From an uncultured Alphaproteobacteria bacterium (GTDB lineage: Bacteria; Pseudomonadota; Alphaproteobacteria; Rhizobiales; Rhodomicrobiaceae): a stretch of DNA of 64,000 nucleotides. Of the stretch, positions 36,880-64,000 are shown piece by piece. The position numbers and the translations under genes are program-made. Position 1 is the first letter of the stretch. Every line of letters starts with the position of its first letter. The notes beneath the pieces are model-generated. The model was not told where the DNA came from. It worked only from the letters and a program-made list of their open reading frames with translations, and ran no database searches. Location: NCBI GenBank assembly GCA_963757195.1, contig CAVWQG010000004.1, positions 502,044-566,043 on the forward strand, written 5' to 3'.

Positions 36880-39631
36880 TCAGGCCCCGGCAAGGTTCCG
36901 CAACACGTAATGCAGGATGCCGCCGCTCTTGAAGTAGTTGAGTTCATCGAGCGTATCGATCCGGCAGAGCAGCGGCACATCCTTCCTCCCTCCATCGGGG
37001 AGGGCTATGCTTGCCGTCATCTTCGTCAGCGGCTTGAGTTCTTTTATGCCATGAATTGTCACCGTCTCGCTGCCCTTGAGGCGGAGGTCTTTCCAGGATA
37101 TGCCCTCCTCGAACACGAGGGGGAGAACGCCCATGCCGACCAGGTTCGAGCGATGAATGCGCTCGAAGCTTTCAGCGATCACGGCGCGCACGCCAAGCAG
37201 ACGCGTGCCCTTGGCGGCCCAGTCGCGGCTTGAGCCTGTGCCGTATTCGCGCCCGGCGAAGATGACCAGCGGCACGCCTTCGGCCTTGTATCGCATGGCC
37301 GCATCGTAGATCGGCATCTGCTCGCCATCCGGGTAATGGACCGTGACGCCGCCTTCGACGCCTGGCGCCATCTGGTTCTTGATGCGGATGTTCGCGAAGG
37401 TCCCGCGCATCATCACTTCATGATTGCCGCGCCGGGCGCCGTAGGAGTTGAAGTCGGCAGCCGTGACATCATGGGCCAGAAGATACTTTCCGGCCGGCCC
37501 CGATTTGGCGATGGAGCCTGCCGGGCTGATGTGGTCCGTCGTGATCGAAGTCGAGGAAAAGGCCGAGAACGCGCGCATCCTCGATGTCGGAAAGCGGCGC
37601 AGGCGCGTCGCCGGTCAGATCCTCGAAATAGGGCGGGTTCTGGACGTAGGTCGAGCCGCCGTCCCACTCATAGGTCTGGCCCGTCTTCGAGCCGCCGACA
37701 GCCTGCCAGCGCGCATCGCCCTTGAAGACATCGGCGTATCGCGTCCTGAACAAATCGGGCGTGACATAGGTGCGGATGAAGTCAGCAACTTCAGCGGACG
37801 ACGGCCAGAGGTCCTTGAGGAAAATGAGCGCGCCGTCCTTGCCGGTTCCGATCGCCTCCGTGGCGAGGTTGAGCTTCATTGTGCCTGCGAGCGCGTAGGC
37901 GACGACGAGCGGCGGCGAGGCGAGATAATTGGCGCGTACATCGGGGTTGACGCGGCCCTCAAAATTCCGGTTGCCCGAAAGCACGGCGGCGACCACCAGA
38001 TCGTTGTCGTTGACGGCCTTCGAGATCGGTTCAGGCAGAGGGCCGGAATTGCCGATGCAGGTTGTGCAACCATAGCCAACGAGTTCAAAGCCGAGCGCAT
38101 CCAGATCCGATTGCAGACCGGACTTCGTCAGATAATCGGTGACAACCTGGCTACCGGGCGCCAGCGATGTCTTGACCCAGGGCTTCGGCTTCAGCCCCTT
38201 CTCGCGCGCCTTGCGGGCAAGCAGACCCGCCGCAATCAGGACGCTCGGATTAGATGTGTTCGTGCAGGACGTGATCGCGGCGATGACAACGTGGCCGTCC
38301 GAAATCGCGTAGTTCTCACCTTCGACGGGACCGGACCGTTCAAGAGGCTCGACGCTGCCGCCGCCTTCGCTCACCATCTCCGCCGCTTGGCTTGCAGGCT
38401 TAACATTGCGCATCTCCGCCAAGGCGTCGAGAAATCCTTCCGAAGCGCGCGTAAGCGGAACGCGATCCTGCGGGCGGCGCGGCCCCGCGAGGCTTGGCTC
38501 AACCGTTGCAAGATCAAGCTCAAGCGTGCTTGTGAAAACGGGGTCCTGCGTGCCCGCGTCGCGCCAAAGCCCCTGCGCTCGCGCATAGCCCTCAGCCAGC
38601 GCCACACGATGCGGATCGCGTCCGGTCGCGCGGAGGTAGTTGATCGTGTCCTTGTCGACGGGGAAGAATCCACAGGTCGCGCCATATTCGGGCGCCATGT
38701 TCGCCATCGTCGCGCGATCCTCCACCGAAAGCGAATCGAGCCCGTGGCCGAAATACTCGACGAACTTGCCGACAACGCCTTTCTTGCGCAGCATCTGTGT
38801 GACCGTCAGCACCAGGTCGGTTGCGGTGACGCCTTCCTTGAGCGCGCCTGTAAAGCGGAAGCCGACCACCTCGGGAATCACCATCGAAATCGGCTGGCCG
38901 AGCATCGCCGCCTCCGCCTCGATGCCGCCGACGCCCCAGCCGAGCACCGAGAGCGCGTTGACCATGGTCGTATGGCTGTCCGTGCCGACCAGCGTATCGG
39001 GGAACGCCTGGGTGGCGCCGCCCTCGTCTTTCGTCCAGACCGTCTGGGCGAGATATTCCAGATTGACCTGATGGCAGATGCCAGTCCCCGGCGGCACGAC
39101 GCGGAAATTCGCGAAAGCATTCGATCCCCAGCGCAGGAACTCGTACCGCTCCTTGTTACGCTGATATTCGAGATCCACGTTGATTTCGAAGCTGCGCGGG
39201 TTGCCGAAGCTGTCCACCATCACGGAATGGTCGATCACAAGATCGACCGGGACGAGCGGATTGATTTTGGCGGTATCGCCGTGAAGGTTCGCCATCGCGT
39301 CACGCATCGCGGCGAGGTCGACGACGGCAGGCACGCCCGTGAAGTCCTGCATCAGCACGCGGGCCGGACGGAAAGCAATTTCACGCGTAGAGCCTTTTTG
39401 CAAAAGCCATTGAGCCATTGCGCGAATATCGTCCGCCGAAACCGTGCGCCCGTCCTCGAACCGCAGGAGGTTTTCCAGCAAAACTTTCAAGGAATAAGGC
39501 AATGCGGCGATGCCCGGCAGCCCGTTGGCTTCGGCATCCGGCAGCGAGAAGACCTCGTAGTCTTTGCCTTCGACTTTCAATGTTTTGCGGGAGTGGAAGC
39601 TGTCGAGAGAGCGCGGAGTCAGGGTTGCCAA
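36880..39631 (-). CDS. acnA: aconitate hydratase A, split by one +1 base (probable sequencing artefact)
   Basis: [39 protein letters not shown]; frames join at FLD|[11 protein letters not shown] if one A of GAAGTC (37547-37552) is removed. Confidence 0.95.
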
Positions 39632-39891
39632 AGCGAATTCTCCTTACTAGCGTGGCGTCTCGCAATTGCCTGCCACCTTCGCGGCAAGCTCTCATAGGCA
39701 ATTGCAAGACATAAGCCACACCAGCATCTAGTTTTTGCTAGTGTCCCTTTGTCTCCGAATTGCCGTGCGAGCATGCTGCAAAGTGAGCGCAACTCGGAGA
39801 CGGGACACTAGCGTGCGAAAATGCATCTTGTGAGCCTGCGGCAGACTAACATAAAGATGGGCAAGCCTGCCCTCTGACACGAGAATTTCAT

Positions 39892-40578
39892 TTGAAAACC
39901 ATCGAGCCGTTGGCCCGCTCCCGCACATCTATTTCTCGCGCGAAAGCCGTGACGGCGATCGCGGTGGAGGGGCTTGCCTGCCAGCGGGGCGGGCATATTG
40001 TGGTGCCGCCACTATCGTTCGAAGTGCGCGCAGGCAACGCGCTCATCCTTCGCGGCCCGAACGGCTCAGGGAAGACAACGCTTCTGCGAACGATTGCGGG
40101 GTTTTTGCCGGCTGCCGCCGGGCGCGTCCGCGTCAACGGCCCCAAAGGCGACACGACCACAGAAGGCCATCTCCATTACATCGGCCACGTAAACGGCATC
40201 AAGCCGCGGCTGTCCGTCATCGAAAATGTGAGCTTCTGGCAACGCTATTATGGCGGCGGCGGCGACCTGGAAGCAGCGGAGGCAGCGCTCGACGCCTTCG
40301 ATCTCCTCGATCTGGCGGACTATCGCGCAGCGCACCTTTCGCAGGGGCAGACGCGTCGGCTCGGTCTTGCCCGCCTTCTAGCCGCTCGCCGCGCCATCTG
40401 GCTTCTCGACGAGCCTTCGGTCTCCCTTGATACGGCATCCACGAGACGGCTCGAGACGGCTATCGCGGATCACCTTGCTTCGGGGGGCATAGCGATTGTC
40501 TCGACACATCTTGATCTGTCGGTGGGCGACGCGGCCATCCTCGAATTGTCGCGAGCGGCAAATATCCACCATTGGTGA
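39892..40578 (+). CDS. ccmA: heme ABC exporter ATPase
   Basis: GPNGSGKTT, LSQGQTRR, WLLDEP, STH; start uncertain. Confidence 0.93.
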   Translation: MKTIEPLARSRTSISRAKAVTAIAVEGLACQRGGHIVVPPLSFEVRAGNALILRGPNGSGKTTLLRTIAGFLPAAAGRVRVNGPKGDTTTEGHLHYIGHVNGIKPRLSVIENVSFWQRYYGGGGDLEAAEAALDAFDLLDLADYRAAHLSQGQTRRLGLARLLAARRAIWLLDEPSVSLDTASTRRLETAIADHLASGGIAIVSTHLDLSVGDAAILELSRAANIHHW

Positions 40579-40607
40579 AAAATGACCCATGCGTTGCTCA
40601 GCATCAA

Positions 40608-40705
40608 CCCTCACCCTGTCCCCCCTCCCTATGGGAGAGGAGACGCCGCTGCAACGGGCGCACCCGAACTCCCTCTCCCAGAGGGAGAGGGCTGGGGTGA
40701 GGGGG
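40608..40705 (+). repeat. BoxC-like double-hairpin element between ccmA and ccmB
   Basis: ccctcaccctgtccccctccc-tat-gggagagg ... tccctctccc-aga-gggagagggctggggtgaggg. Confidence 0.85.
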
Positions 40706-40748
40706 TTCGACGTTTCGTGGATCTGCGATTTCGGATACTAGTCCTGCA

Positions 40749-41408
40749 ATGAACGCTTTCCTCGCCCTCATTGAACGCGACCTTCGCCTCGCGCTTAGGC
40801 AAGGCTCTGCCATCGGGACGGCACTCGGGTTTTATCTGATCGCCGTCTCGATCATCCCGCTCGGCCTCGGCCCGGACCTTGCGCTGCTCACCCGCATCGC
40901 TCCCGGAATCCTCTGGATCTCGTTCCTTTTATCGGCGGTGCTGTCAGTGGATGCGCTTTTCCAGGAAGACCGCGATGACGGTTCGCTCGATGCGCTGGTC
41001 ATCGGGCCGCTTCCGTCCGAGCTGATCGCGGCCTCGAAAAGCATTTCCCATTGGCTCACCACCTGCGTGCCGCTCATCATCATCACGCCGCTCGCCGGTC
41101 TCCTCCTCAATATTGAGCTGGATGCTGTGCCTAAGCTGATGGCCTCGCTCGCCGCGGGCACCGTCGGCATCAGCTTTATCGCGGGCGCGGGCGCGGCGCT
41201 GACGCTGGGGCTGAGGCGTGGCGCTTTGCTCCTTCCTCTCCTGATCTTGCCGCTTTTTGCGCCATTCCTCATATTCGGCGTGGGCGCGATGGCAGAAGCG
41301 CCCGGCGCTTTTGTTCAGAGCATCCTGTTTCTTTCGGCGCTCTCGTTGTTCTCAATAGCGGCGATGCCATTTGCCGCTGCTCTTGCACTTCGGCTCAGTC
41401 TAGAGTGA
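40749..41408 (+). CDS. ccmB: heme exporter protein B
   Basis: RDLRLALRQG, APGILW, FQEDRDDGSLD, LLILPL. Confidence 0.95.
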   Translation: MNAFLALIERDLRLALRQGSAIGTALGFYLIAVSIIPLGLGPDLALLTRIAPGILWISFLLSAVLSVDALFQEDRDDGSLDALVIGPLPSELIAASKSISHWLTTCVPLIIITPLAGLLLNIELDAVPKLMASLAAGTVGISFIAGAGAALTLGLRRGALLLPLLILPLFAPFLIFGVGAMAEAPGAFVQSILFLSALSLFSIAAMPFAAALALRLSLE

Positions 41409-41441
41409 GCCTATATCAAGCCATGAATTGGAATATGATCG

Positions 41442-42245
41442 ATGGCCGAACTTTCTGAACCTCAAACAATGAGATCCTGGCGGGTCAGTACGCTCGCGAA
41501 TCCGACAGCTTTCATGCGCTTGAGCGGAAAGCTCCTTCCTTGGCTTATTGCGGTAACTTTGATCCTTTTCGCCATCGGGTTGACGATGGCGTTTCGCGCG
41601 CCGCCGGATTACCAGCAGGGTGAAACCGTCAAGATCATGTATGTGCACGTCCCCGCGGCATGGCTGTCGATGGCGTGTTATACGATTATCGCGCTTTCCT
41701 CTGCGGGTTATCTGATCTGGCGGCACCCGCTCGCGGACGTCTCCGCCAAGGCCGCGGCGCCGATTGGCGCCGTGTTCACGTTGCTTGCGCTCGTGACGGG
41801 GTCGCTCTGGGGCAAGCCCATGTGGGGCGCTTACTGGGTTTGGGACGCGCGGCTGACGTCTGTCCTGATCCTGTTCTTCCTCTATCTCGGGCTGATAGCC
41901 TTGCGGCAGGCCATTGACGAGCCGGGCCGCGCAGGGCGTGCTGCGGCGATCCTAGCTATCATCGGAGCCGTCAATATCCCAATCATCAAATATTCGGTGA
42001 ACTGGTGGAATACGCTGCACCAGCCGGCGAGTGTCATCCGCGCTGGCGGACCGACCATTGCGCCATCATTGCTTTGGCCGCTCCTCATCATGGCGTTGGC
42101 GTTTACAATTCTTTTTGTCGTCCTGCATTTGAAGGCCATGCGCGCCGAAGTACTAAGGCGCAGATGCGACGCCATGATCGCCGTCCACGTGCGCGGCGAC
42201 TCCCCGCCGGAACCCGCAGCCGGGGAGGCCGTATCCCATGTTTGA
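41442..42245 (+). CDS. ccmC: heme exporter protein C
   Basis: IMYVHVP, WGKPMWGAYWVWDARLT, SVNWWNTLHQ. Confidence 0.97.
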   Translation: MAELSEPQTMRSWRVSTLANPTAFMRLSGKLLPWLIAVTLILFAIGLTMAFRAPPDYQQGETVKIMYVHVPAAWLSMACYTIIALSSAGYLIWRHPLADVSAKAAAPIGAVFTLLALVTGSLWGKPMWGAYWVWDARLTSVLILFFLYLGLIALRQAIDEPGRAGRAAAILAIIGAVNIPIIKYSVNWWNTLHQPASVIRAGGPTIAPSLLWPLLIMALAFTILFVVLHLKAMRAEVLRRRCDAMIAVHVRGDSPPEPAAGEAVSHV

Positions 42246-42420
42246 TCTCGGACCTCACGCCGCATTCATCTGGCTTTCCTACCTCGCAGCGACGCTTTGT
42301 GTGATGGGCCTTGTCCTGTGGGTTTGGACCGACGAGCGAACCCAGAGACGGCGGCTCGCGGATCTTGAACGCCGGGGGATGCGCCGGAGATCGTCTCAGC
42401 AAAATCAGGACAGGCCATGA
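42238..42420 (+). CDS. ccmD: heme exporter protein D
   Basis: DLGPHAAFIWLSY, one TM, basic tail; between ccmC and ccmG. Confidence 0.85.
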   Translation: MFDLGPHAAFIWLSYLAATLCVMGLVLWVWTDERTQRRRLADLERRGMRRRSSQQNQDRP

Positions 42421-43037
42421 GCGAGACAACATCAACTGAAGAAAAACCGGCCCGGAAGAAGTCGAGGGCCGTGCTCATTCTGCCGCTTGTGCTCCTGGTT
42501 GCGGTCTTGGGCTTGCTGACCGTTGCGTTGCAGTCGGGCGATCCCTCGCACCTTCCGTCGGTTCTTATTGGAAAGCCGGTTCCGGAGTTCGACTTGGCGG
42601 CCATTCCCCGCCTGCAAAACGAGGCAGGAACGCCCATTCCAGGTTTTTCATCTGCGTCGCTGAAAAGCGGCAAGGTCAGCCTTGTTAACTTCTGGGCTTC
42701 ATGGTGCGCGCCCTGTTTAGCGGAACACCCGGAGCTCGTCGAACTCGCGAAGCAGGGCGTTCCTCTGTACGGGATTGACTACAAGGGCGACACTCCGGAA
42801 GCGGCGAGGCGGTTTCTAACCCGCCACGGCAATCCCTTTCTGGCCATCGGCGCCGATGAAACGGGCATGACCGGGATCGACTTAGGAGTTACCGGCGTTC
42901 CTGAAACCTTCGTCATCGACGGTTCTGGGCGCATCGTTATGCGTCATCAGGGGCCTTTGACTTCCGAAGTGATCGCCGAGAAGATAAAGCCTGCGATGGA
43001 GAAGGCCGGGAAGGAAAGCTCTGCTGCTCGCTCGTAA
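42417..43037 (+). CDS. ccmG: thiol:disulfide interchange protein CcmG/DsbE
   Basis: LPSVLIGKPVPEF, NFWASWCAPC, GVTGVPETF. Confidence 0.95.
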   Translation: MSETTSTEEKPARKKSRAVLILPLVLLVAVLGLLTVALQSGDPSHLPSVLIGKPVPEFDLAAIPRLQNEAGTPIPGFSSASLKSGKVSLVNFWASWCAPCLAEHPELVELAKQGVPLYGIDYKGDTPEAARRFLTRHGNPFLAIGADETGMTGIDLGVTGVPETFVIDGSGRIVMRHQGPLTSEVIAEKIKPAMEKAGKESSAARS

Positions 43038-43235
43038 GCAGGATCTGAAGGTCTTTATTGCAGTCGACGATTGAGCCTGCGCCGAATTTTCGGCGGCTGC
43101 GCGGCGCGCCTGCGGGATCTGCGTCGATTAGACAAAGCCAAGATGATAAGCGCAGTTTGACCCTCCCACGCTGTACAACTACGATCCCCATGAAACGGTT
43201 CGGCCGCTGCCGAAAAACGAAAAGGTCTTTACGCC

Positions 43236-43490
43236 ATGATGAGGTCTTTGGTCTCTCTTCTATTGATTTTAATAGGCGTCCCATTAACTATCTTCGCGCT
43301 GAATGGCGACAGTACGGTCATTGAAACTCAAGATGCGAGAATGCATGGCCTCTATGCCGGCGTCGCTCTCATCATTGTGGGCTTCATCATCGGCAAGTTC
43401 TGGTCACTGAAGTGGAAAATGAAGCGCTCATCACTGCCGGCCCAACAGCCGGAGCAGATCGATCTCTTCGAACCTCGCAAAGAGGCCTAA
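43236..43490 (+). CDS. small 2-TM membrane protein
   Basis: Two hydrophobic segments. Confidence 0.55.
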   Translation: MMRSLVSLLLILIGVPLTIFALNGDSTVIETQDARMHGLYAGVALIIVGFIIGKFWSLKWKMKRSSLPAQQPEQIDLFEPRKEA

Positions 43491-43497
43491 GCTGTCT

Positions 43498-43815
43498 CTA
43501 GTCCCCTATGATTTCCGGGGGAGGACGGCGATATCCTGCAAGGAAGATGAGAGCCCCGGCCGCTCCAAACAGGATCGAGACGGGTAGTACGAGCATCGGT
43601 TCTATGATGCCGTTCCACAGATAGGGCGGCGCGTGATTTAGGAAAAAGCTTTCCAGCGTCTCGCGGCCGTCAGGGATGTGGTTCAGGTGTATCGAAAGAG
43701 ACGTGAAAAGCAGCCCTTCCCCGGGGCTCGCTAAAATCCGTGCTCCGTCATAGGCCAAAGCCACAAATGCTGCGAAAAGCAGCGTCTTCCCTAACAGCCT
43801 AAGAAAAAGCATCAC
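43498..43815 (-). CDS. small membrane protein
   Basis: LFLRLLGKTLLFAAFVALAYDG, LWNGIIEPMLVLP; Rhizobiales-type conserved hypothetical by recollection. Confidence 0.65.
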   Translation of the reverse strand: MMLFLRLLGKTLLFAAFVALAYDGARILASPGEGLLFTSLSIHLNHIPDGRETLESFFLNHAPPYLWNGIIEPMLVLPVSILFGAAGALIFLAGYRRPPPEIIGD

Positions 43816-43868
43816 TCTCTTCCCTGCTATGGCTTCGGTTTCCCAAACAAAGTTTGACGGGGCGCGCG

Positions 43869-43995
43869 GTCGTCCCGGAAAGGCGAAGCCTTATCCGGGA
43901 ACGTAATATATTGAAACGCTTCCATCTTTGCGATCCCGGCTCGCGCTTCGCTTGGCCGAGATGACAATCCGTTGGCCAGATTAGCGACGTTTGCT
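43869..43995 (+). repeat. double-hairpin intergenic repeat
   Basis: gtcgtcccggaaaggcgaagccttatccgggaac ... gatcccggctcgcgcttcgcttggccgagatgacaatccgttggcca. Confidence 0.85.
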
Positions 43996-44130
43996 GAGAC
44001 TCGCAAAGGGCGCGGCGCAAGATTTGTTGCGCACTTGAGAATCTTGCCTGCGCCCCGTTTTCTGCGCAACCAGATACTGGCGCCCATCTCCTTCACAAAA
44101 AAGCAATAGACCTGATCCTATATCGATACA

Positions 44131-46093
44131 TTGTCGCTTGCCTTTGGCTGGCCAGCCCGGAGCGAAGGCTTGAATAGATCAGATAGAAATACCGCCCGGC
44201 GCAGCCTTCAAGCCCGCAATCGCCGCTTTATCCGGCGTTCCGGGCAGAAACTCAAGCGTGCGATAGCCGTCCTGGCTGCTGTCATCGTAATCGGAACCAT
44301 GCTTCTTTTGGGGTCGGTCGCTATTGAGCAGAGGGAAGCCGCCGAAGAGCGGGCCTGGAACGACGTCGACAATCTGTCGGGCGCCTTTGAAGAACAGGTC
44401 TATCGCGTCGTTGACGACGTGCGGGGTGCGATCGACTTGCTAAAGCTGCGGTTCACCGTTGAAGGAACCGCCTTCAATCTTGTCGACTGGGCGCAGCGTA
44501 TCCCTGAATTTGCGACATCCACCGTCCAGATTGCCTATGTCGGGCCGGATGGAAAACTCCTGGCCACGTCTCTCTCGCGAAACCCCCAGCACATCGATCT
44601 GTCGGATCGCGAGCACATTCGCGTGCAACTCACCGGCGAGCAAAAGGGCCTCTTTATAGGCAAGACCGTCATCGGACGCGTCTCCGGGCAGCCCACGATT
44701 CAGGTCACCGACAGAAATAACGACGCGGATGGAAAATTGGCCGGGATCATTGTCTTTTCGCTCTCGCCGGAATTTCTCACCACGCTTCATAAAGTCGTGA
44801 ACCTCGGCAAGACGGGCTCCATGATCCTCATGGGAGAGGATGGCGTCGTTCGAGCCTCCTACGGGTCATGGCAGAAATCGGACCTCGACTTCATCGGCAA
44901 GAAGGTTTCTGGGACGGAGGCCATAACCGATGCCCGCAACTCGACGTTGCCTGAAGGTCAGTATCGCGGCATCAATCCTCTTAGCGGCGAGCCCGCATTC
45001 CTGCATTGGCGGAAGGTGAAAGACTATCCCCTCGTCGTGGCCGTCAGTTTCGGAGAATCCGAGGTCTTCGCTGTCGCCAATCGGAGCGCGGTGATGCTTG
45101 CCGCGCTTGGAGCTGGCGTTCTCGTCATGACGCTAACAACAACGCTGATTCTCTACCGGGAAATCTCGCGGCGCGTTCATCGGGAGATCGCGTTGTTCGA
45201 CGAGAGCCGCAAACTCGTGCTTGTTAATGACAATCTGCAGCGCCGGCACCGGCAGCTCCTGGCTGCAAGCGCGGAGCTCGAACTCCGAGAGAACACGTTT
45301 GCAGCTCGTGAATCAGGAGCTCAAAGCGGCTAAGGAGCAAGCCGATCAGGCAAACCAAGCCAAGACTTCGCTTTTGATGAACATGAGTCATGAATTCAGG
45401 ACACCGATGCATGCGATTCTGAATTACACGAGCATGGGCCTGAAAAAACTCGACTCTGCTGAACGTGAGAAGCTGAAGAAATATCTTACCAACATCCAGC
45501 AATCGGGCCTGCGCCTCCTTGAATTGCTGAACGCCCTTCTTGACCTGGCCAAACTGGAGTCTGGAAAGCTTGAGCTGAAGCCATCCAGGGGCAATTTAGT
45601 TCAAATCATCCGTCAATCTCAAGCTGAAGTCGGTTCTCTCTTTGAAGCAAAGCGACTTGAACTTATCGTCGAGTGCCAGAGCAGAGATACGTGCGCTTTC
45701 TTCGACAAGGAAAGATTGATACAGGTCTTCATCAATCTCTTCTCGAACGCGATCAAATTTTCACCGCAAGAGAACACGATCCAGGTCACAATAGCGGACG
45801 GCAAATTACCTGAACGTGGCCCCGCCTTCCACTGCACCGTCTCAGACAACGGCGTCGGAATCCCGGAGGCGGAGCTGGAAGCGATCTTCGATAAGTTCAC
45901 ACAAAGCAGCAAGACCAACACGGGCGCCGGCGGCTCAGGCCTGGGTCTCGCAATCTGCCGGGAAATCATTCACCTCCACGGCGGCATTATATGGGCGGCT
46001 ACGTCTCTTTCCGGGGGAGCTTCTATCCATTTCGTAATACCGAAAGAAGCCGCCGGCGAAAATGCCGGTGGCATTCTGGTCGCTGCTGGCTAA
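44131..46093 (+). CDS. Cache-domain sensor histidine kinase, split by one +1 base (probable artefact)
   Basis: TM-Cache(IDLSDREH, GKTVIGRVSG)-TM; MSHEFRTP H-box; NAIKFS, DNGVGIP, GSGLGL; frames join as ELDSERTRLQ if one A of GAACTC (45280-45285) is removed. Confidence 0.9.
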
Positions 46094-46213
46094 GGCTCGG
46101 CGCTTGCATCTTTCTGCAAATTATACAATCCATAGTTGCAAAGCTTTTCCAGATTCTAACTAGATTTGCGATTACGCAAAAATGGCGCGCATGTCTCACA
46201 GAGTCCCAACACA

Positions 46214-47459: not shown

Positions 47460-47660
47460 TGTTCCCCTCGTCAGAAATTCCCTTTCCACTGATTAACATA
47501 GCGCGCCCCGATTCGTACAGGGGTGAGGCAAGGCATTGAAAATCAAAGCGAGTTCTGGCGGGGGTGCGGCGAACAGCGTCAGGAATTCAAACTTCCCATT
47601 TAATATCAATGCGTTACGCCTGTGTTTGAATAGCAACTTGAGTAGCCTACTAATCTTTTG

Positions 47661-52492: not shown

Positions 52493-53424
52493 CTAGTATT
52501 TTGGAGATTGCTGCCCGCCGAGCAAAAATCCCGCTGGATTACGTTCGACTTTCTCGACAACGCGATCGAGGCTATCCGCTAAGCGCCTGCCTTCCTTCAT
52601 AAAAAGCTCGAATTCGCGTAGTGAGCGGTCCATCTGCTGCGTAAGCTCGCCGGACTTGTCGCCCAGTGATTTATCAAGTTTCTCCGAGAGCTGGCGAAAA
52701 GAAGTCGCGGCTTGTTGCACTTGCGACACAACGGAGTCAGGGTGATCGGAGGCTGCTCCCGCTAGGCGATCGACTGCGGCATCCACCTTCTGTGAGATCT
52801 CGTTCAAGTGAGCGGAAAGCCCACGCACATCCTGGACAATACCCGCAACATCGTCCTTCCGTTCCGCCATCATGGTCGTGAACGTCTCAAGATTTGCGAT
52901 CGTGTGGCGAATGGAGATCTTCGTTGTTCGCCACGAGATTGTTCAAGCGAGCCGCAAGCGAATTCGCCTGGCTTGCCGCATCGGACATGCCTGCGAATAG
53001 CGATGAGGCAGGATCGGCGTAAATCACCGGGTATTGTTCGCCCTGCTTGGCCTGTAGCATGGCGGCATCCGGGGTGCCGGGCGTGATTTCCATGGCGACA
53101 AGGCCCGCCAAACCCTGCTGCGAGAATTCGAGCGTGCGAGTTGATTCTCACCGGCGTTTCATCGCGGATAGTGATGAGAACCCGGACTTTCCGCGTATCC
53201 TCGGGGACAAGCTCTATGGAGCGGACGGCGCCAAAACGGATGCCGTTGAAGAGTACGGGCGAAGATTGGGCGAGACCCTGCACGGATCCCTCGAAAATGA
53301 CATTATAGTTCTTGCCCGACGATCCCGATGCGTCGTTCTTGATCCAATAAATGAAGCCCAGGAGCGATCCGAGAAGGCCAAGAACGAAGACGCCGATGAT
53401 GAAATAATTCGCTCGTGTTTCCAT
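52493..53424 (-). CDS. mlaD: MlaD/MCE substrate-binding protein, split by two +1 bases (probable artefacts)
   Basis: METRANYFIIGVFV, VQGLAQSSPVLFNGIRFG; continuous if one base is removed from GAATTC (53124-53129) and from GAGATC (52914-52919). Confidence 0.88.
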
Positions 53425-53426
53425 GC

Positions 53427-54245
53427 TTATGATGCCCTCGCAATAAGCCGGCCGCGCTCTCCGCAGAAATAGTCCCTGACCCAGGGGTGGCCGGGGTCCC
53501 GCACAAGGTCCAACGGCTGACCGAGGCGCACGACATGTTTGTCGGCAAGCACCGCAACCCGGTCGCACACGGCGAAGATGCTGTCGAGATCGTGCGTGAT
53601 CATGTAGACGGTGAGCCCCAGTGTTTGGTGCAGATTGCGGATAAGGCGGTCGAAAGCAGCAGCAGCGATCGGGTCGAGCCCCGACGTCGGTTCGTCCAGA
53701 AAGAGGATGCCAGGATCGAGCGCAAGCGCGCGAGCAAGCCCCGCCCGTTTACGCATCCCGCCGGAAAGCTCCGATGGGGCTTTGTAGGCCGCATTCGCGG
53801 GCAGGCCGACCATGGCGATTTTCAACAGCGCGAGTTCATCCATCACCTTTTGAGGCAGGTCGAGATGCTCACGCATGGGCACTTGTACATTTTGCAGCAC
53901 GTTGAGCGATGAGAACAGCGCGCCATCCTGAAACAGCACGCCCCATTGCCGCTCAATCGCAATGCGGTCCTGGCTCGACAGTGTTTTGAAGTTCCTGCCC
54001 AAGACCTCGACCGTCCCAGCCTCGAAAGGCAACAAGCCGAGAATCGTGCGCAACAGCACGGATTTCCCGGTGCCCGACCCGCCGGCGATGCCCAGAATTT
54101 CGCCGCACATCACATCGAGATCGAGGTTTTCGAAAATGACCTGCTGCCCGAAGCGCTCGGTCAGGCCGCGCACGCGGATTGCGTAATCGTCACGGCGGCA
54201 TGAGGCTGGAAACGGCGGTGGCGGAGAAGAGGGCGGCAGGCGCAT
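53427..54245 (-). CDS. mlaF: MlaF-type ABC ATPase
   Basis: GGSGTGKS, FQDGALFSS, PSELSGGMRKRAGLARALALDP, ITHDL. Confidence 0.92.
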   Translation of the reverse strand: MRLPPSSPPPPFPASCRRDDYAIRVRGLTERFGQQVIFENLDLDVMCGEILGIAGGSGTGKSVLLRTILGLLPFEAGTVEVLGRNFKTLSSQDRIAIERQWGVLFQDGALFSSLNVLQNVQVPMREHLDLPQKVMDELALLKIAMVGLPANAAYKAPSELSGGMRKRAGLARALALDPGILFLDEPTSGLDPIAAAAFDRLIRNLHQTLGLTVYMITHDLDSIFAVCDRVAVLADKHVVRLGQPLDLVRDPGHPWVRDYFCGERGRLIARAS

Positions 54246-54247
54246 CG

Positions 54248-55408: not shown

Positions 55409-55602
55409 TCGGGTGTTTCAGGGCTCGACAGTGAGCGATGGCCTGGATCACGGCAAAAATGTGCAGAAATCTGCCTCGCTCGCGAGCCCTGCCATGAAAC
55501 AATGTCGGCATCGCGGCGCCTGAAAGAGCCATTCAGCAAGTGTTTGGCAACGTTTCCCCGCTAATCTTTGCTGAAAGAACTCTTGCTTGACCGGCGGCGG
55601 TT

Positions 55603-56082
55603 ATGACGACCTTTTCAACGGCTTCCCTTTCCGAGATGGACTACTGCGCTCTTGAGGATGCCCTTTTGGCCACCGAGAAAGGCAGGCGCTTTTTGCGCAC
55701 GTATGTCGACCGCAATCGCGGGCTCGAAACGCTGCGCCTGCTGCGGTCTATCTCACGCATGCATCGCGCGGCGCTCGGTGTGCCGGGGGTCAACGCGGAA
55801 GTCTGCCGCGACTTGATGGGCGTACTGAAACTTGTTTCCAAGCGGCGTGAGCAATCTTCGGAATGCTCCGACGCGGCCGCCCGGTCCCAAAGTCTCATGT
55901 CCGGCCTCGAGGAGATCGAGGCTTGTGTCATTACTTTGATCGAGACGATCGAAGAAAGAATGGCCGGCCAGTTGCAGGAGGAAGTCTCGGCAACCCGGAT
56001 ATCAGGCGACGGCTACTCACCTGAACGCAACGCAAAGCTCTTCGGAGAGCTTTCCTCCTATTTTTCCGCCGAACCGCGCTGA
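55603..56082 (+). CDS. hypothetical protein with Rhizobiales CheZ-associated-type N-terminus
   Basis: SEMDYCALEDALLATEKGRRFLRTYVDRNR resembles the DYxAIExAVMETxRGRWFLxEYARRNR motif (from memory). Confidence 0.6.
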   Translation: MTTFSTASLSEMDYCALEDALLATEKGRRFLRTYVDRNRGLETLRLLRSISRMHRAALGVPGVNAEVCRDLMGVLKLVSKRREQSSECSDAAARSQSLMSGLEEIEACVITLIETIEERMAGQLQEEVSATRISGDGYSPERNAKLFGELSSYFSAEPR

Positions 56083-56360
56083 GCGATCGGCCAGCGAAAA
56101 CCTCCCTCGCCTGACAGCGTTCCGCCCCTGCTCCGCTATGTCACTCTTTCGAAAGCCGAGCACCTTTGTCCGGGCTTCGTAGTTGCTGGACCTTGCTTCA
56201 TTGCTTAGAATGGCGCCGAAGGCCGGGCGCCCGTAAAGCAGAGCGACCCTGCCTCCACGTCACACATTCTTCATTCACGCGTGAAAAACCTTAATTTCCC
56301 TGGCTAGCGCAGTCCAATCAGCCGGTGGCGTCGGCCATCTTATTGAGAGGAAACCGGAAG

Positions 56361-58799
56361 ATGAAAGCGGGTGAAGCAGTTTCAGCCCCAAGCGAAGGGC
56401 AATTGTCCCCCGATCTCCTCCGCAAGATGGACGCCTGGTGGCGCGCGGCGAATTACCTGTCGGTTGGGCAAATCTACCTTTTGGGAAACCCGCTCCTCAA
56501 ACGGCCGCTAGAGAAAGAGGACATCAAGCCCCGCTTGCTCGGCCATTGGGGCACGACGCCGGGCTTGAACTTCATCTATGTCCACCTGAACCGCGTCATC
56601 AAAGAGCGCGATCTGGACATGATGTATATCATCGGCCCTGGTCATGGCGGCCCCGGCATTGTGGCCAACACCTACCTGGAAGGCACCTACTCCGAAGTCT
56701 ACCCGAGCATTTCGCAGGACGAAGAGGGGATGAGGAAGCTGTTCAAGCAGTTCTCCTTCCCCGGCGGCATCCCGAGCCACGTCGCGCCTGAAACGCCCGG
56801 CTCGATCCACGAAGGCGGCGAACTCGGCTATGCGCTCAGTCACGCCTTCGGCGCCGCTTTCGACAATCCCGATCTCATCGTCGCGACCGTTGTCGGCGAC
56901 GGCGAAGCGGAAACCGGCCCGCTGGCCACGAGCTGGCATTCGAACAAGTTCCTGAACCCGGCCACAGACGGGGCTGTGCTGCCGATCCTCCATCTCAACG
57001 GCTACAAGATCGCCAATCCGACGGTGCTAGCCCGTATCAGCCACGAGGAGCTGGATCAGCTATTCCGCGGCTATGGCTATACGCCGATCTTTGTCGAAGG
57101 CAGCGACCCGGCGAAGATGCACCAGCTCATGGCGGCCGCACTCGACAAAGCCATCGGCGAAATCCGGCGCATACAGGTCGCCGCGCGCGCGAACGGCGTC
57201 ACGGAGCGCCCGCGCTGGCCGATGATTATCCTGCGCTCGCCGAAGGGCTGGACCGGACCCAAGGAAGTCGACGGAAAGCGCGCGGAGGACTACTGGCGCT
57301 CGCATCAGGTCCCAATGAGCGAGGTCCGCGACAACCCCGAGCATATCAAGATCCTCGAGCAATGGATGAAGAGCTACAAGCCGGAGGAGCTTTTTGACGA
57401 AAACGGCCGATTCAAACCCCACCTGGAGGAGATCGCGCCCAAGGGCGAGCGGCGCATGAGCGCGAACCCGCATGCCAATGGCGGCCTGCTGCTGCGCGAC
57501 CTCATCTTGCCCGACTTCCGCAAATACGCCGTCGAGGTTGAGAAGCCGGGCGGCAAGGATGCCGAGGCCACGCGCGAGATGGGCAAGTTCCTGCGCGATG
57601 TGATGAAGCTCAACCTATCGAGCAAGAACTTCCGCCTGTTTAGCCCCGATGAGAACAACTCGAACCGCTGGCAGGATGTGCTCGATGTGACCAACCGCGC
57701 CTGGATGGCGGAGAGGTTCCCCTATGACGATCATCTCGCGCCGGATGGCCGCGTGATGGAGATGCTGAGCGAACACCAGTGCGAGGGTTGGTTAGAGGGC
57801 TATCTGCTCACCGGCCGCCACGGATTCTTTTCCTGCTATGAGGCCTTCATCCACATCGTCAACTCGATGTTAAATCAGCACGCCAAGTGGCTGAAGGTCT
57901 GCAATCACATCCCCTGGCGGCGGCCCATCGCTTCGCTCAATTATCTGCTCAGCTCACACGTCTGGCGGCAGGACCACAACGGCTTTTCGCACCAGGACCC
58001 GGGCTTCATCGATCACGTCGTGAACAAGAAGGCCGAGGTCGTCCGCGTTTATCTGCCACCGGACGCCAACTGCCTGCTTTCAGTAACCGATCACTGTCTG
58101 CGCAGCCGAAACTATGTGAACCTCGTCATCGCCGGCAAGCAGCCGGCGCCTGTCTGGCTGACCATGGACGAAGCCATCAAGCACTGCACGGCCGGAATAG
58201 GCATCTGGGAATGGGCCAGCAACGATCGCGACGGCGAACCGGACGTTGTGATGGCGTGCTGCGGCGACGTGCCGACGCTTGAGACGTTGGCCGCTGTCGA
58301 CCTCATCCGCACCCATCTGCCGGAGCTGAAGGTTCGCGTGATCAATGTCGTGGACCTGATGAAGCTGCAGCCTGCAAGCGAGCATAAACACGGCTTAAGC
58401 GACCTCGACTTCGACACGCTTTTCACCAAGGACAAGCCCATCGTCTTCGCTTTCCATGGCTATCCCTGGCTCATCCACCGGCTCACCTACCGCCGCACAA
58501 ACCACAAAAACCTGCACGTTCGCGGCTACAAAGAGGAAGGCACGACCACGACACCCTTCGACATGGTGGTGCTGAACGAGATGGATCGCTTCCACCTCGT
58601 GGGCGACGTCATCGACCGCCTCCCCCAGCTTGGCTCGCGCGCCGCTTATGCGAAGCAGCGGATCCGCGACGCGTTGATCGAACACCGCCAGTACATCAAC
58701 GAGCGCGGCGAGGATCATCCGTTCGTGCTGAACTGGAAATGGGGGGAGAGCGGCTCGTCTGGAGCGAAACGTAGTTCCACGTCAGCCGATAATGTATGA
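56361..58799 (+). CDS. xfp: xylulose-5-P/fructose-6-P phosphoketolase
   Basis: [67 protein letters not shown]. Confidence 0.97.
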
Positions 58800-58864
58800 G
58801 CCAGGCGGTCTCCATGTGGTAATCCCGAGCGGCTTTTGTATGCACCGCAGGGCGGGAAGAAAGT

Positions 58865-59320
58865 CCGTTCCAATTTTTTCCTGTCACTGCCAGCGCCTCC
58901 CGCCCCATTTGACGTATTTTACAAAAATGCGCTTTATCGAGGCGTTAACGCGGGTGACCAAGACGAAATCGCCGGTATTTACAGGGAAATTTTGGCGGGA
59001 ACCGCCGCCGGAGGCGAGCTTCGGCTAGCGCTCCTCCTCCACCGGGAGGGCGCGCGCGCTTGGTAAATGTGCGAAGTCGAAATATATTTAACGGACTTTT
59101 GCTCGTCCCAGTAAATGAGAAAATTCCTGCATTTAGTTCCATTTAATAGGAGGTCACGGACGAATGAAACATGTTTATTTTCGAGGATTTAGCGGAATTA
59201 CTTCCCGCCGGGATTGGGCGTGGAGGGAAGTAATTGTGGCCGGAAGTAATAGCTTTTTAAGCATGATGGTGAACGGAAAAAATTCCGGCGCGCTTCCGTT
59301 AACCCTGTTCCGGTAAAGGC
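58865..59320 (-). promoter_or_regulatory. second copy of the AT-rich TTAA(C)-box region (reverse orientation)
   Basis: Reverse complements of the 34450-34875 blocks at 59293-59304, 59081-59102, 58916-58949, 58870-58884. Confidence 0.55.
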
Positions 59321-59662
59321 GCGGCCGGCGCGGCAAACGACTACGATCCGTTCACCTTTTGGAGCCAGATTTTGCGCCGTCAATAGTCACGGCCGCCGTC
59401 TGCCGTTGCTCAAAATCGGTAGTATTTGACCATCTCAGCCCTTTCAGGGAGTTGGTCAAACCACGGTGATGGGCGGCAAACGGACTTGTGCTAAGGGCGT
59501 TCAAGTCGATCGCGATGCCGAAATCCATAGGGATCTCAACTGAGGGAGCTCCCAGCGCGTCCAAGGGAGCGGTTGCATCGATCCCGTACCGGCAGCAGGA
59601 CCGTTGCAATTCCTCAGTCATCCACCACATCCTCAGCACATTTGCACAGGAATGGGTCGGCA

Positions 59663-60833
59663 ATGCCTCCCGGACTCTCTCGTCGTCATCTGCTGGCCCT
59701 GGCGCCGCTTGCCTGGGCGGGCGCGGTAATAGCCGGTGCGGCGTCGCCACGCGACTCCGGCAATGTTGTGCCAACCTTTGGGGCCGCCCCCCAACCCGGC
59801 CTGGTGTTGGCGCCCGGACCGGAGGGATGGTGGGATTCCTGGCGGGTTTCGGGCCCAAGCGTCATGCGGGGGGCGGACGGCATCTGGAGAATGTGGTACT
59901 ACGGACGAGATGCTTCGTTTGACCGGCAAATCCTCCTGCCCACCGGCCGCTGCGGTTTGGCAACCTCCGCCGATGGTGTGCACTGGGAACGGGTGCGTGG
60001 TCCTCTGACGATGGGGGCGGTGTTCGAACCCAGTCCCGATCCCGGCCGGTTTGAACTCGGCCCATGTCGGCGTCAGCGATGTCGGCGTCTTCGACGGGCT
60101 CTACTGGATGTGGTATTTCGGCGGCGATCAGACCGTTGTCGCGACAAGCGAATTCACGGCGAAAGGGCTCCAGATGCGGCCCGGCTGCGCCGTCTCCCGC
60201 GACGGTATCAATTGGGTGCGATTGGACGGTCCCTACCGGGGCGCCATGCTCGACGTTGGACCGGCCGGCGCGTTCGACGCACTCACTTGCGCCTGGCCCA
60301 AGGTGGTGCGCGACGAGTCCGGCTGGAAGCTCTACTACCACTCACTGTCCGACGGGCATTTTCACACCGGACTGGCGACATCGATCGGACTGGCGACATC
60401 AAGGGATGGGCTGCGGTGGGAGAAGGCCGGACTGCTGCTGGGTCCCGGCAAGCCGGGCAGCTTTGACGAACGCGCCGTTGGAACCCGCCACGTGCTCAGG
60501 ATCAACGGCGAGTACGTGATGTTCTACGAAGGCGTCGACGGCGCGGGATATCATTCCATTGGCCTGGCGCTTTCCGACGACGGCATCCGTTGGAGACGGG
60601 ATGGCGAGGGGGACTCCGGCCTGCCGGTTCTTTCGCCCGCCCCGAAAGGCTCCGGTCTCTGGGATGCGCGGGCCATCGGTACACCCTGTGTCGTGCCGAT
60701 GCAGGATGGCAGTTTTCGTATGTACTATGTCGGCGCAAGCGAAGGCGGTCTCGATCAAGCCTCATATCAGATCGGTCTGGCCGTGAGCGAGGGATCAGAC
60801 TTTCGCAGGTGGCGTCGCTGGGGCCAGTCCTGA
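59663..60833 (+). CDS. Tat-exported GH32/GH43-like five-bladed beta-propeller, split by one +1 base (probable artefact)
   Basis: Tat-like SRRHLL; repeated blades WRMWYYG/GLATSADGVHW, WMWYFGG, VMFYEG, RMYYVG; frames join as GRFDSAHVG if one A of GAACTC (60053-60058) is removed. Confidence 0.8.
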
Positions 60834-60910
60834 GCTCGAGCTTCCGCAACTCAGGCAGCGAGGCAAGCTCAAGCACTTCCATTGACCCACGGAAGGCGGC
60901 GAGGATGCCG

Positions 60911-61885
60911 ATGCGTATTGCCTCTTTCAATCTTGAAAACCTCGAGTTGGTGTCGCGGTCCGGCGTCACAATCGAGGAGCGCGCGGACATCCTTCGGCCC
61001 CAGTTCGAACGGCTCCGCGCGGACATCCTCTGCCTGCAAGAGGTGAACGGGCAGCGCTTGGAACACGAAGCGCAGCGGTCGCCGCACGCACTGGATTCGC
61101 TCCTCAAGGGAACGCCCTACGAGACCTTCCATCGCGCTACGACAAGCGGCCCTAGCGGAAGCGGCGTCGCCGATGTCCATAATCTCGTCATCCTTTCGCG
61201 CAAGCCGATCCTTGCTCATCGCGAATTGCGGCATTCGAGCCTGCCGCCACTAACATACCGTTCTGTGACAGCCGATCCTCCCGCGCCGGGGGAGCCCGTC
61301 CTCTTTGACCGGCCGATTCTCATGGCGGAGATCGAACACGCTGACGGCCGCAAGCTTTTCGTGTTCAACGTCCATCTGCGAGCCCCGCTGGCGACGCCAA
61401 TCCCAGGGCAGAAAAAATCGTCCGCCGTTTGGAAAAGCGTGCGCGGCTGGGCCGAAGGTTTTTTTCTCTCAGGCTTAAAGCGAAGCGCCCAGGCGCTGGA
61501 ACTCCGGCTCGCAATCGACGCGTTGCTCGACGCCGATCCGCACGGGGCAATCGCCGTCTGTGGCGATTTCAACGCCGAGGATCATGAAACGCCGCTGAAG
61601 ATCGTAATCGGAGCCGAAGAGGACACCGGCAATGGATTGCTCGCAAACCGATCGATGGTGGTGCTCGACCGCACGCTTTCGAAAGACCGCCGCTTCAGTG
61701 TGCTCCATCACGGCCGCCCGCAGATGCTCGATCACATTCTCATAAGCCGCAGCCTATACGGGCGCTTCTCAACAATCGAGGCGCACAATGAGACGCTTGA
61801 GGACGAGGCGATTGGAGGCGTAAAAGTCCAGCAGTCCCTATCCTCGTTTCACGCACCGGTCGTTGCCGAGTTTGTTTTCGAGTGA
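60911..61885 (+). CDS. endonuclease/exonuclease/phosphatase family protein
   Basis: RIASFNLENL, ILCLQEV, FNVHL, CGDFNA, LDHIL, HAPVVAEF. Confidence 0.9.
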   Translation: MRIASFNLENLELVSRSGVTIEERADILRPQFERLRADILCLQEVNGQRLEHEAQRSPHALDSLLKGTPYETFHRATTSGPSGSGVADVHNLVILSRKPILAHRELRHSSLPPLTYRSVTADPPAPGEPVLFDRPILMAEIEHADGRKLFVFNVHLRAPLATPIPGQKKSSAVWKSVRGWAEGFFLSGLKRSAQALELRLAIDALLDADPHGAIAVCGDFNAEDHETPLKIVIGAEEDTGNGLLANRSMVVLDRTLSKDRRFSVLHHGRPQMLDHILISRSLYGRFSTIEAHNETLEDEAIGGVKVQQSLSSFHAPVVAEFVFE

Positions 61886-61916
61886 GCGGCGGCTCGAAAA
61901 TGCCGGGCGGGGATCC

Positions 61917-62204
61917 TCAACTCTGGCAAGGGCTCATGCTCTTGCATCCGCGTTCCGCGATCGCAGCATCGAGATCTGTCAGCCTCTTATCGTAAGCGCG
62001 CTGCTTGCCCGGCTCGCAATGAATAACACCATCTTTCGCATCGGATGTGTGAAGGCTGCGGAACCGATACGCCTTGATCGCCAGTGCAATGCGCCTTTCA
62101 ACCAGTTCCTTAAGCGGAAGGCTTGTCAGAACGGCCTTCGGAGCAGAAAAGGCATCGAGAAACACGTCTGCTGGCACGACTGCGCCACCGTCAAACAACA
62201 TCAC
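61917..62204 (-). CDS. possible small hypothetical protein
   Basis: ORF fills the intergenic gap, RBS-like GGGGG; no family recognised. Confidence 0.3.
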   Translation of the reverse strand: MMLFDGGAVVPADVFLDAFSAPKAVLTSLPLKELVERRIALAIKAYRFRSLHTSDAKDGVIHCEPGKQRAYDKRLTDLDAAIAERGCKSMSPCQS

Positions 62205-62494
62205 GCAACCCCCGTTTTAAACATGCAAGCGCAGGCGCCGGCATGTTCTCGTTATAGTCAACCCTAAGTTATTGCGCAATGTGGTATAAAAACCATTACT
62301 CGCCGCGAAGTATTTTTTGCTTTGTGCACCGCGCGGGCGAACCCGCCAGCACTTATGCACCGGTTCCCGAACCCCGAGCGAATTCGGTGATAGAGACAAG
62401 TGGAAATCCGAATAGGGCGTGCTATGCGAATGCTGTCCTGATTGGGAAGAATCGGAAGCGGGGCTTGCCGCTGCCGAAGGCGGATTTATCCATC

Positions 62495-64000
62495 GTGGCT
62501 GACAACGGGTCGAGATACTGGCCGGGATTATCCGGCGAAATGGCTGGGCGCATCCGCGCACATGATTGGGCGTCGACGCCGCTGGGTCCGATCGAGGGCT
62601 GGCCGCAGAGCCTGAAGAGCATTGTCGACCTCATGCTCTGCGCGAGGCATCCCGCTTCCATCGCTTTCGGCCCTGCCCTCACATCGCTCTATAATGACGC
62701 CTACATCGCCATACTTGGAACAGGGCGCCCGAAATCCCTCGGGCAACCCTATTCGGAGGTGTGGCCTGAGCTTTGGCCCAAATTTAAGCCGATGATCGAG
62801 GCGACACTGGCTGGCGAGGCGCAGCATATCGCCGACCACCCGGTTTTTGCGGCCGGCTGCGCTGGCCGTCCCACGAGTTGGTTCACCTGCTCATGGACGC
62901 CGCTTCGCGATGAGGCCGGCGCGGTGAAGGGTTTCTACTGTTCCGCGGCCGAAACGACGGCCCAGGTCCTTGCTCAGAGGGCGCTGCGGGACAGCGAGGA
63001 GCGGCTTCGTTTCTCGCTGAGAGGTGCTGGCGCGGCGGCATGGCAGTGGGATTTCCTGACAAGGGAAATGGGCTGGTCGCCGGAGAGCTACGAGTTGCAC
63101 GGACGCGACCCTCGGTTTGGCAAGCCCAGCTACGAAGATTGGTTTCATTGCCTGCACCCTGATGATCGTCCCCGGGTCGAGAAAGTGGTCTTCGACGCCA
63201 TCCAGAAAAGATCGCCGGAGTACAGGACGGAATATCGAGTCGTGTTTCCCTCCGGCGACGTACGCTGGCTCGATGCGCTCGGGAATGTGGATTACGCCGC
63301 AGATGGCTCCCCGTTGCGCATGTCGGGCATCAACCTCGACATCACGGCGCGCAAGCGGGCCGAGGAAGCGCTGCGTGAGAGCGAGGAGCGGCTTCGTTTC
63401 TGCATGAAGGGGGCAGGCGCCGCCGCATGGCAGAGCGAAATCTCTACCAGGCAAATAATCTGGTCCGAAGTGTGCTGCGAGTTGCACGGGCGCGATCCCA
63501 GGCTCGGATCGCCACTGTATGACGACTGGTATCGATGCATACATCCAGAGGATCGTGATCGAGTTCGAGAAGACGAACCTCGATGCGCTTTTGAAGGGGG
63601 CGCCCGAAATCGGGATGCACTATCGCGTACTCCTCCCCACGGGCGAAATTCGCTGGCTCGAAGCGCTGGGCAAAGTGGAATACGCCGCTGACGGCAGGCC
63701 GTTGCGGATGTCTGGCATCACCCTGAACATCACCGAGCGTAAGCGGGCGGAAGAGTCCCAAAGACAAGAGCACCGCGAATTGGAAACGATTCTGGCCGCG
63801 ATCCCCGCTGCGGTTATGATCACGAAGGATGCCAGCTGCACTGAGATGACCGGCAATCCGGCAGCCTACGACCTTTTGGAACGTCCAGCGGGGGCTAATC
63901 TTTCGAAGTCGGCTCCCTATGGACAGGCCCCTCACAACTTTGAAATATTTCAAAGAGGATGCCGCTTGGCGCCCGCGGATTTGCCAATTCGGAAAGCCTC
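62495..64000 (+). CDS. multi-PAS sensor protein (probable kinase), runs off window end; one +1 base (probable artefact)
   Basis: GEMAGRIRAHDWASTPLGP N-terminal PAS-like domain; two PAS-PAC modules with 387-bp period (62993, 63380); frame restored to DRVEKTNLDALLK if one T of GAGTTC (63561-63566) is removed. Confidence 0.85.

Follow-up and report, generated by a model that had tools for sequence, protein, structure and literature searches.

Frameshifts at GANTC sites in an uncultured Rhodomicrobiaceae bacterium: a probable long-read consensus error at CcrM-methylated adenines

Six +1 frameshifts in the 64,000-nt stretch of DNA analyzed here (the window) probably reflect systematic errors in a long-read consensus, made at GANTC sites that CcrM methylates, and would not be present in the DNA of the organism, a reading to which we assign a probability of about 0.87. 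The breaks lie at the hexamers GAAGTC (37547), GAACTC (45280), GAGATC (52914), GAATTC (53124), GAACTC (60053), and GAGTTC (63561), each of which is the point at which one gene shifts into the +1 frame. These coordinates and frame changes match those of an earlier note on this DNA, which had named the six breaks and observed that deletion of one base from each hexamer leaves GANTC. The note was also correct that an A or T is doubled in five of the six, GAGATC at 52914 being the exception. By themselves, six sites are weak evidence because GANNTC is met roughly every 182 nt and one deletion turns any GANNTC into GANTC, and the significance therefore comes from genome-wide tests. Read in this way, the breaks belong to a type of sequencing artefact that has been described before, and they represent neither gene decay nor new biology.

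An intact ccrM gene, encoding a GANTC-type N6-adenine DNA methyltransferase of 373 aa, occupies positions 35083-36204 of the forward strand, where the earlier note had placed it. Its product carries a beta-class N6-adenine methyltransferase domain (Pfam N6_N4_Mtase, 1.4e-63, positions 1-220 of 221) and a CcrM-type C-terminal domain (RAMA, positions 12-104 of 107), and it resembles the Caulobacter CcrM structure 6PBD over its full length (E = 1.1e-155 across 349 residues, 18-366 on 15-363 of 366). The protein is thus confirmed as a CcrM orthologue, and orthology suggests that it is specific for GANTC. We propose that CcrM would N6-methylate the GANTC adenine on both strands, that the modified base would distort the single-molecule signal, and that the basecaller or polisher would then add one surplus base at a minority of sites, with C-GA-C/G-TC as the favored context. 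The surplus base would usually repeat the methylated A, giving GAANTC, or GANTTC when the error stems from the other strand. In coding sequence each such base would read as a +1 frameshift, and the affected genes should therefore be treated as intact. Methylation is the presumed cause of the insertions, and the platform was most probably Oxford Nanopore, as we infer; the assembly of 5.15 Mb in five contigs is compatible with long reads but is no proof of them.

The genome-wide tests relied on codon statistics learned from this genome under six-frame competition, with switch points localized from coding potential. At internal +1 switches, GANNTC ranked first of 256 XYNNZW patterns (85 of 287 versus 25.6 expected, p = 1.4e-23), and an independent per-site margin test concurred (153 versus 79 expected, p = 1.2e-13). 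At -1 switches across the genome GANNTC was not enriched (22 of 191 versus 17 expected). The excess resides in the hexamers that double the A or T, since GAANTC or GANTTC lay within 8 nt of 79 of the 287 internal +1 switches against 12.5 expected, whereas the other GANNTC hexamers were not enriched there (8 versus 15 expected); nor were homopolymers enriched at +1 switches genome-wide. In an unbiased 6-mer scan, GAACTC/GAGTTC came first (42 versus 3.4 expected, p = 2.5e-32). Every one of the four GANTC variants is hit, and it is the A methylated by CcrM, or its partner T, that is doubled. Copies of insertion sequences at least 99.5% identical to one another carry the same signature, with 8 of their 41 single-base differences consisting of GANTC versus GAANTC/GANTTC. 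The rate depends on context, with C or G favored at N and C favored at position -1, and the overall rate is at least 1% of sites, with GASTC at about 1.7% and GAWTC at about 0.3%. The earlier note had proposed counting frameshifts inside and outside GANTC across the genome; the genome-wide tests yield an enrichment with p from 1e-13 to 1e-32. Its assertion that every +1 frameshift sits in a GANTC site holds within the window as far as the scan sees, but "every" is too strong for the genome as a whole. The coding-potential scan also contains one further frameshift candidate at about 17.56-17.70 kb of the window, an interval that has no GANNTC.

A second class, GANTCT/AGANTC, is also enriched at +1 switches (19 versus 2.9 expected). 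It includes at least one site, in fusA, at which the assembly reads GGATTCTAT and seven relatives read GGAT[C/T]TAT. The true fusA site is not GANTC, and CcrM methylation of that site therefore cannot explain the insertion. This case bears on the possibility that the basecaller or polisher errs at GANTC-like k-mers irrespective of methylation, the match to the CcrM motif being coincidental, which we consider unlikely. That reading is favored by fusA, where the seven relatives have no GANTC and the false base creates GATTC, and by the strong dependence on C or G at N and on C at -1. It does not sit well with the involvement of all four GANTC variants, with the coincidence of the doubled base and the base that CcrM methylates or its partner, or with the intact ccrM in the genome. 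Moreover, a methylation-independent error at GACTC would show in every long-read assembly, whatever the organism, and in nanopore-only assemblies of agrobacteria the errors at GANTC have been tied to methylation and are reduced by methylation-aware models (PMC12710330).

Within the window, acnA (aconitate hydratase; 36880-39631, reverse strand) appears as two ORFs, with the Aconitase domain on the first (37469-39631) and Aconitase_C on the second (36880-37578). Coding potential switches at 37537-37545, and alignment with relatives puts the additional base within a GANTC that is conserved among them, now GAAGTC at 37547-37552. Here the window reads GATCGAAGTCGAGG, G012 reads GATCG-AGTCGAGG, and G001 reads GATCG-AATCGAGG, so that G012 (GAGTC) and G001 (GAATC) are each one base shorter than the window. 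The extra base recurs at this site in G009 (GAGTTC) and G008 (GAATTC), and the acnA ORFs of both are broken there. At a second site, the window has an intact GAATC (38733-38737), and here the assemblies of G012 (AGAATC) and G001 (GAGTTC) each carry one base more than those of the window, G009, and G008; the acnA ORF of G012 is broken. The same kind of insertion is thus seen at two conserved acnA GANTC sites in assemblies of four other species in the genus.

The mlaD-family gene (52493-53568, reverse strand) falls into three pieces, with three coding segments in three frames, and in the first piece the MlaD match ends early, at position 60 of the 81-position profile. The GAGATC at 52914-52919 represents a conserved GANTC lengthened by one base without doubling of A or T: five of six aligned relatives are one base shorter and have GANTC at the exact spot (GAGTC in G006; GAATC in G009, G005, and G010; GACTC in G012). 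At the second break, GAATTC at 53124-53129, the window exceeds all six relatives by one base; they read GAGATGCG (aligned as GAG-ATGCG) and lack GANTC there, so that this GANTC is specific to the lineage of the window. A multi-PAS signaling protein (62279-64000, forward strand) is present as two ORFs, the second extending past the window end. PAS_3 and PAS_4 match the first ORF; since the second picks up PAS_3 from profile position 40, the break falls inside a PAS domain. Alignment with orthologues and with the preceding PAS unit places an extra T in a GAGTC site, giving GAGTTC at 63561-63566; compared with five orthologues, and with the repeat unit just before it in the gene, the window has one base more, and G010 reads GAGTC. 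For four of the six sites, namely those in acnA, mlaD (both), and the PAS gene, relatives or an in-gene paralogue therefore show that the surplus base falls within the hexamer.

The other two sites are placed less sharply. The sensor histidine kinase (44131-46093, forward strand) is split into ORFs at 44131-45333, which bears dCache, and 45221-46093, which bears HisKA and HATPase_c, with the coding-potential switch at 45286-45302. The window exceeds eight aligned relatives by one base at 45280, probably an extra A in GAACTC (45280-45285), although the placement is ambiguous: the +1 can be written as GA[A]CTC, in line with the GACTC and identical L-D-S residues of G012, or as CT[C]G one codon upstream. 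The kinase is thus consistent with a GAACTC insertion but ambiguous. The beta-propeller, glycosidase-like gene (59573-60833, forward strand) is in two pieces, whose coding segments (59690-60061 and 60033-60791) differ in frame by +1, and GAACTC (60053-60058) lies inside the switch interval of 60033-60061. There is no orthologue among 20 relatives with which to place the base and no Pfam match, and 200 genomes from the order yielded one weak homologue when searched. A +1 at 60053 is supported by the coding-potential switch and by a beta-propeller blade motif on either side, which is common to both pieces and to a 332-aa ORF in G153.

Elsewhere in the genome, conserved genes are split in the same manner. 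Profile searches were run on the separate pieces of broken genes, and the two pieces align one after the other to a single NCBIfam model with no sequence lost for CarB (6-613 and 616-1057 of 1058), UvrA (6-292 and 295-941 of 943), ClpB (1-515 and 523-843 of 853), and citramalate synthase (2-292 and 293-520 of 526); aconitase is likewise split without loss, and fusA is split too, though at a site whose true sequence is not GANTC. We estimate a minimum of about 65 to 80 falsely split genes, and probably 130 to 200 given the limited sensitivity of the scan. In real frameshift pseudogenes and phase-variable contingency loci, the lesions fall mainly in homopolymers or simple repeats and in dispensable genes, with decay downstream. 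The present breaks resemble them in that single-base indels disrupt reading frames but differ in that homopolymers are not enriched, housekeeping genes are hit, and downstream sequence is intact. Sparing of essential genes and relaxed constraint downstream would be expected of real pseudogenes; instead, the breaks hit carB, uvrA, clpB, cimA, and acnA, and the profile matches flanking each break are complete.

These split genes weigh on the view that the bases are real, methylated GANTC being a hotspot of +1 insertion, perhaps because the polymerase stalls or slips opposite m6A, and the genes being recent pseudogenes. The deposited sequence does carry the bases, and motif specificity would also be possible for a lesion- or slippage-based hotspot; if true, this lineage and its relatives would have many recent frameshifts at methylation sites. 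Yet at least about 65 to 80 genes, including carB, uvrA, clpB, cimA, and acnA, would have been lost at once while their downstream parts retained full coding potential and full profile matches, with no matching excess of other types of pseudogene lesion. Five species' assemblies would need independent aconitase breaks at one of two GANTC sites, and the fusA insertion (GANTCT class) lies at a site that is not truly GANTC. We therefore consider a real hotspot, which the earlier note had offered as its less likely alternative, highly improbable. A chance association, resting on how common GANNTC is and on frameshifts usually being placed only to within tens of bases, has a negligible probability and is rejected by the localized genome-wide tests (a large excess, specific to +1 and to A/T-doubling hexamers, p from 1e-13 to 1e-32) and by the alignments that locate the extra base within the hexamer at four of six sites, even though the kinase base can sit outside its hexamer and two cruder tests were near null: interval containment without a localized switch point, which is too blunt (239 versus 220 expected), and merging of open stretches of at least 300 nt by a one-base deletion, which has no power with about 2% of all positions qualifying (GANNTC 4.1% versus a median of 3.9%).

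Consensus error at methylated GANTC has precedents. Nanopore consensus errors at Dam (GATC) and Dcm (CCWGG) sites are caused by the modification, are motif-specific, are typically substitutions, and persist with more coverage. The errors in the window are likewise motif-specific and would likewise arise from base modification, although motifs and enzymes differ. Closer parallels are the agrobacterial errors (PMC12710330) and the GANTC-linked errors in nanopore assemblies of Brucella (PMC12392509), which share with ours the GANTC motif, the CcrM target, the bacterial class, persistence in long-read-only consensus, restriction to a minority of motif sites, and a location mostly in coding sequence. 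The motif-linked errors of the agrobacteria were described as SNPs, whereas the signature seen here is insertion of one base, with the methylated A/T doubled, at about 1 to 2% of sites; the type of the two GANTC-linked errors in Brucella is not stated, and insertions at GANTC are reported in neither study. As in work deriving motifs from modification-induced nanopore read errors (PMC11610603), a methyltransferase motif can be recovered from a systematic error footprint, but that work used strand-specific mismatches at the read level, whereas here the footprint is read from frameshifts in a finished consensus. Three features of a motif-linked error are seen here: concentration on one motif genome-wide, an encoded methyltransferase with that motif as its predicted target (the CcrM orthologue), and recurrence in independent assemblies and in IS copies. 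Together with a motif pattern confined to insertions and the splitting of housekeeping genes, they support the reading preferred in the earlier note, in which m6A at GANTC misleads long-read basecalling while the genes are whole and CcrM works.

The value of the finding is practical, as a caution to annotators. At the affected genes, this and sister assemblies would give wrong annotation, wrong counts of pseudogenes, and wrong results in pangenome or dN/dS work. The signature can be flagged from sequence alone, as a +1 switch at GAANTC/GANTTC in a genome that encodes ccrM. For the organism itself, the error footprint provides indirect, assembly-only evidence that CcrM may be active and GANTC methylated in this uncultured lineage.

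The earlier note placed +1 frameshifts in six GANNTC hexamers of the window (C4:502044-566043), and all six are present where it put them: GAAGTC at 37547 in acnA, GAACTC at 45280 in a kinase gene, GAGATC at 52914 and GAATTC at 53124 in mlaD, GAACTC at 60053 in a glycosidase-like gene, and GAGTTC at 63561 in a PAS gene. Because every GANNTC can be "repaired" to GANTC, the CcrM target, and such hexamers are frequent (28,229 in the genome, one per 182 nt), the six cases prove little alone, and we therefore built tests on this genome only. A codon log-odds model was trained under six-frame competition, coding segments were called from it, same-strand neighbouring segments in different frames were paired, and the best switch point was found for each pair. 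The +1-type set (n = 287) was limited to pairs switching 30 nt or more ahead of the upstream stop, a condition that excludes most ordinary tandem genes; Shine-Dalgarno-like and stop-like patterns in the near-stop class provided a sanity check of the method. A second test computed frame margins from 150-nt flanks at each hexamer.

GANNTC lay within 6 nt of the switch in 85 of 287 +1-type pairs, against 25.6 expected (p = 1.4e-23), and ranked first among 256 XYNNZW patterns; -1-type pairs showed no GANNTC excess (22 of 191, 17 expected). The frame-margin test gave 153 versus 79 (p = 1.2e-13) and nothing for -1. Only hexamers with a doubled A or T are in excess, namely GAACTC (24 observed, 5.1 expected), GAGTTC (21, 4.9), GAAGTC (18, 4.5), GACTTC (13, 4.3), and GAATTC (10, 3.5), and the nine non-doubling hexamers combined are at expectation. 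In the switch-point set, the count was 79 for GAANTC/GANTTC (12.5 expected) and 8 for the remaining GANNTC (15 expected), so that the genome-wide GANTC enrichment anticipated in the earlier note is borne out, for +1 switches only. An unbiased 6-mer scan returned GAACTC/GAGTTC at the top (42 versus 3.4, p = 2.5e-32) and no outstanding motif at -1 switches, and homopolymers were enriched in neither indel class. The excess corresponds to ~1.7% of 2,999 GASTC sites and ~0.3% of 4,984 GAWTC sites, both lower bounds; affected sites are spread over all large contigs and tend to have C at position -1 and N = C or G. This genome-wide A/T-doubling signature sharpens the initial observation.

Alignment to relatives locates most of the window's insertions. 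The acnA gene is split into two minus-strand ORFs overlapping at 37469-37578, one carrying Aconitase and the other Aconitase_C, and the window reads GATCGAAGTCGAGG where same-genus relatives G012 and G001 read GATCG-AGTCGAGG and GATCG-AATCGAGG. In mlaD, GAGATC at 52914 is an insertion within a conserved site, since five of six relatives carry GANTC at the exact spot, each one base shorter, and here the inserted base doubles neither A nor T. At 53124 the window exceeds all six relatives by one base; they read GAGATGCG, confining GANTC there to the window's lineage. The PAS gene, broken inside a PAS_3 domain (Pfam), has one extra base relative to five orthologues and to its own preceding PAS unit, and relative G010 reads GAGTC at the corresponding place. 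The kinase gene is +1 against eight relatives, with an ambiguous position: GA[A]CTC (as in G012, GACTC, residues L-D-S) or, a codon further upstream, CT[C]G (as in G006 and G009). For the gene at 60053, no orthologue was found among 20 relatives and a Pfam search gave no match; coding potential switches at 60033-60061, and both sides of the break carry the beta-propeller blade motif of a glycosidase-like ORF in another genome (G153). Amid these broken genes, an 824-aa phosphoketolase (56325-58799, plus strand; XFP_N, XFP, XFP_C) is intact, indicating that the region is otherwise well assembled. At 16310-18559 (minus strand), a weakly coding +1-frame segment comes after an RluB-like pseudouridine synthase (S4 and PseudoU_synth_2); no GANNTC lies in the gap at 17559-17705, and the segment could represent either a low-complexity C-terminal tail or another kind of frameshift.

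The assignment of ccrM to 35083-36204 also held: the product has an N6_N4_Mtase domain and a C-terminal RAMA domain and aligns almost end to end with the Caulobacter CcrM structure 6PBD (E = 1.1e-155), which identifies it as a CcrM orthologue. GANTC is strongly under-represented in this genome of 5.15 Mb (5 contigs, 59% G+C), with 7,983 occurrences against ~18,700 predicted from its G+C content; such scarcity is typical of CcrM-carrying genomes.

Several observations argue that the extra bases are not real. Pieces of split genes align to consecutive positions of one full-length NCBIfam model per gene (CarB, 6-613 and 616-1057 of 1058; UvrA, 6-292 and 295-941 of 943; ClpB, 1-515 and 523-843 of 853; citramalate synthase, 2-292 and 293-520 of 526), and damage to conserved genes with no sequence lost favors an artefact. 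The same pattern recurs in assemblies of other species of the genus. The window's acnA site reads GAGTTC in G009 and GAATTC in G008, where the acnA ORFs are also broken, and a second conserved acnA site, an intact GAATC in the window (38733-38737), reads AGAATC in G012, whose ORF is broken, and GAGTTC in G001, each one base longer. It is not biologically credible that aconitase should be broken in five species, each time at one or other of two GANTC sites, and the +1 GANTC artefact is probably common to all the sister genomes. Among IS copies sharing at least 99.5% identity, 8 of the 41 single-base length differences are GANTC versus GAANTC/GANTTC, the insertion falling at different sites in different copies. 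Two multi-copy IS-like families (~1.5 and ~1.7 kb) include copies distinguished only in this way (C1:1597149, C1:2168106, and C2:1141586, compared with at least 10 others); further examples lie at C1:950642/950686, 1112450, and 1330894 and at C2:1823162. Still other copies disagree at C5/C6 or G5/G6 runs, and the assembly therefore probably contains some errors in homopolymer length as well. GANTC errors are documented in nanopore-only agrobacterial assemblies, where methylation-aware basecalling reduces them (PMC12710330), and in Brucella, which has ccrM (PMC12392509).

Together, these lines support the reading preferred in the earlier note, in which GANTC methylation would provoke a long-read error that leaves an extra base. 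One case from a second insertion class leaves room for a minor rival reading, in which part of the effect would be a k-mer bias independent of methylation. GANTCT/AGANTC occurs at 19 +1 switches genome-wide against 2.9 expected and at no -1 switches, as in fusA (C1:1356544), an aldehyde dehydrogenase gene (C2:1568637), and a sucA-like gene (C2:983291). The G012 acnA instance has an additional A adjoining a genuine GANTC. The fusA sequence is GGAT[C/T]TAT in seven relatives and GGATTCTAT in this assembly, so the false base creates GATTC where the true sequence lacks GANTC, and CcrM methylation of that site cannot account for the insertion. The frameshifts are most probably assembly artefacts of an already known kind, and the affected genes should be read as intact. 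The practical value is a warning for annotation, and, as far as sequence can indicate, the insertion footprint would be indirect evidence that CcrM is active in this organism.
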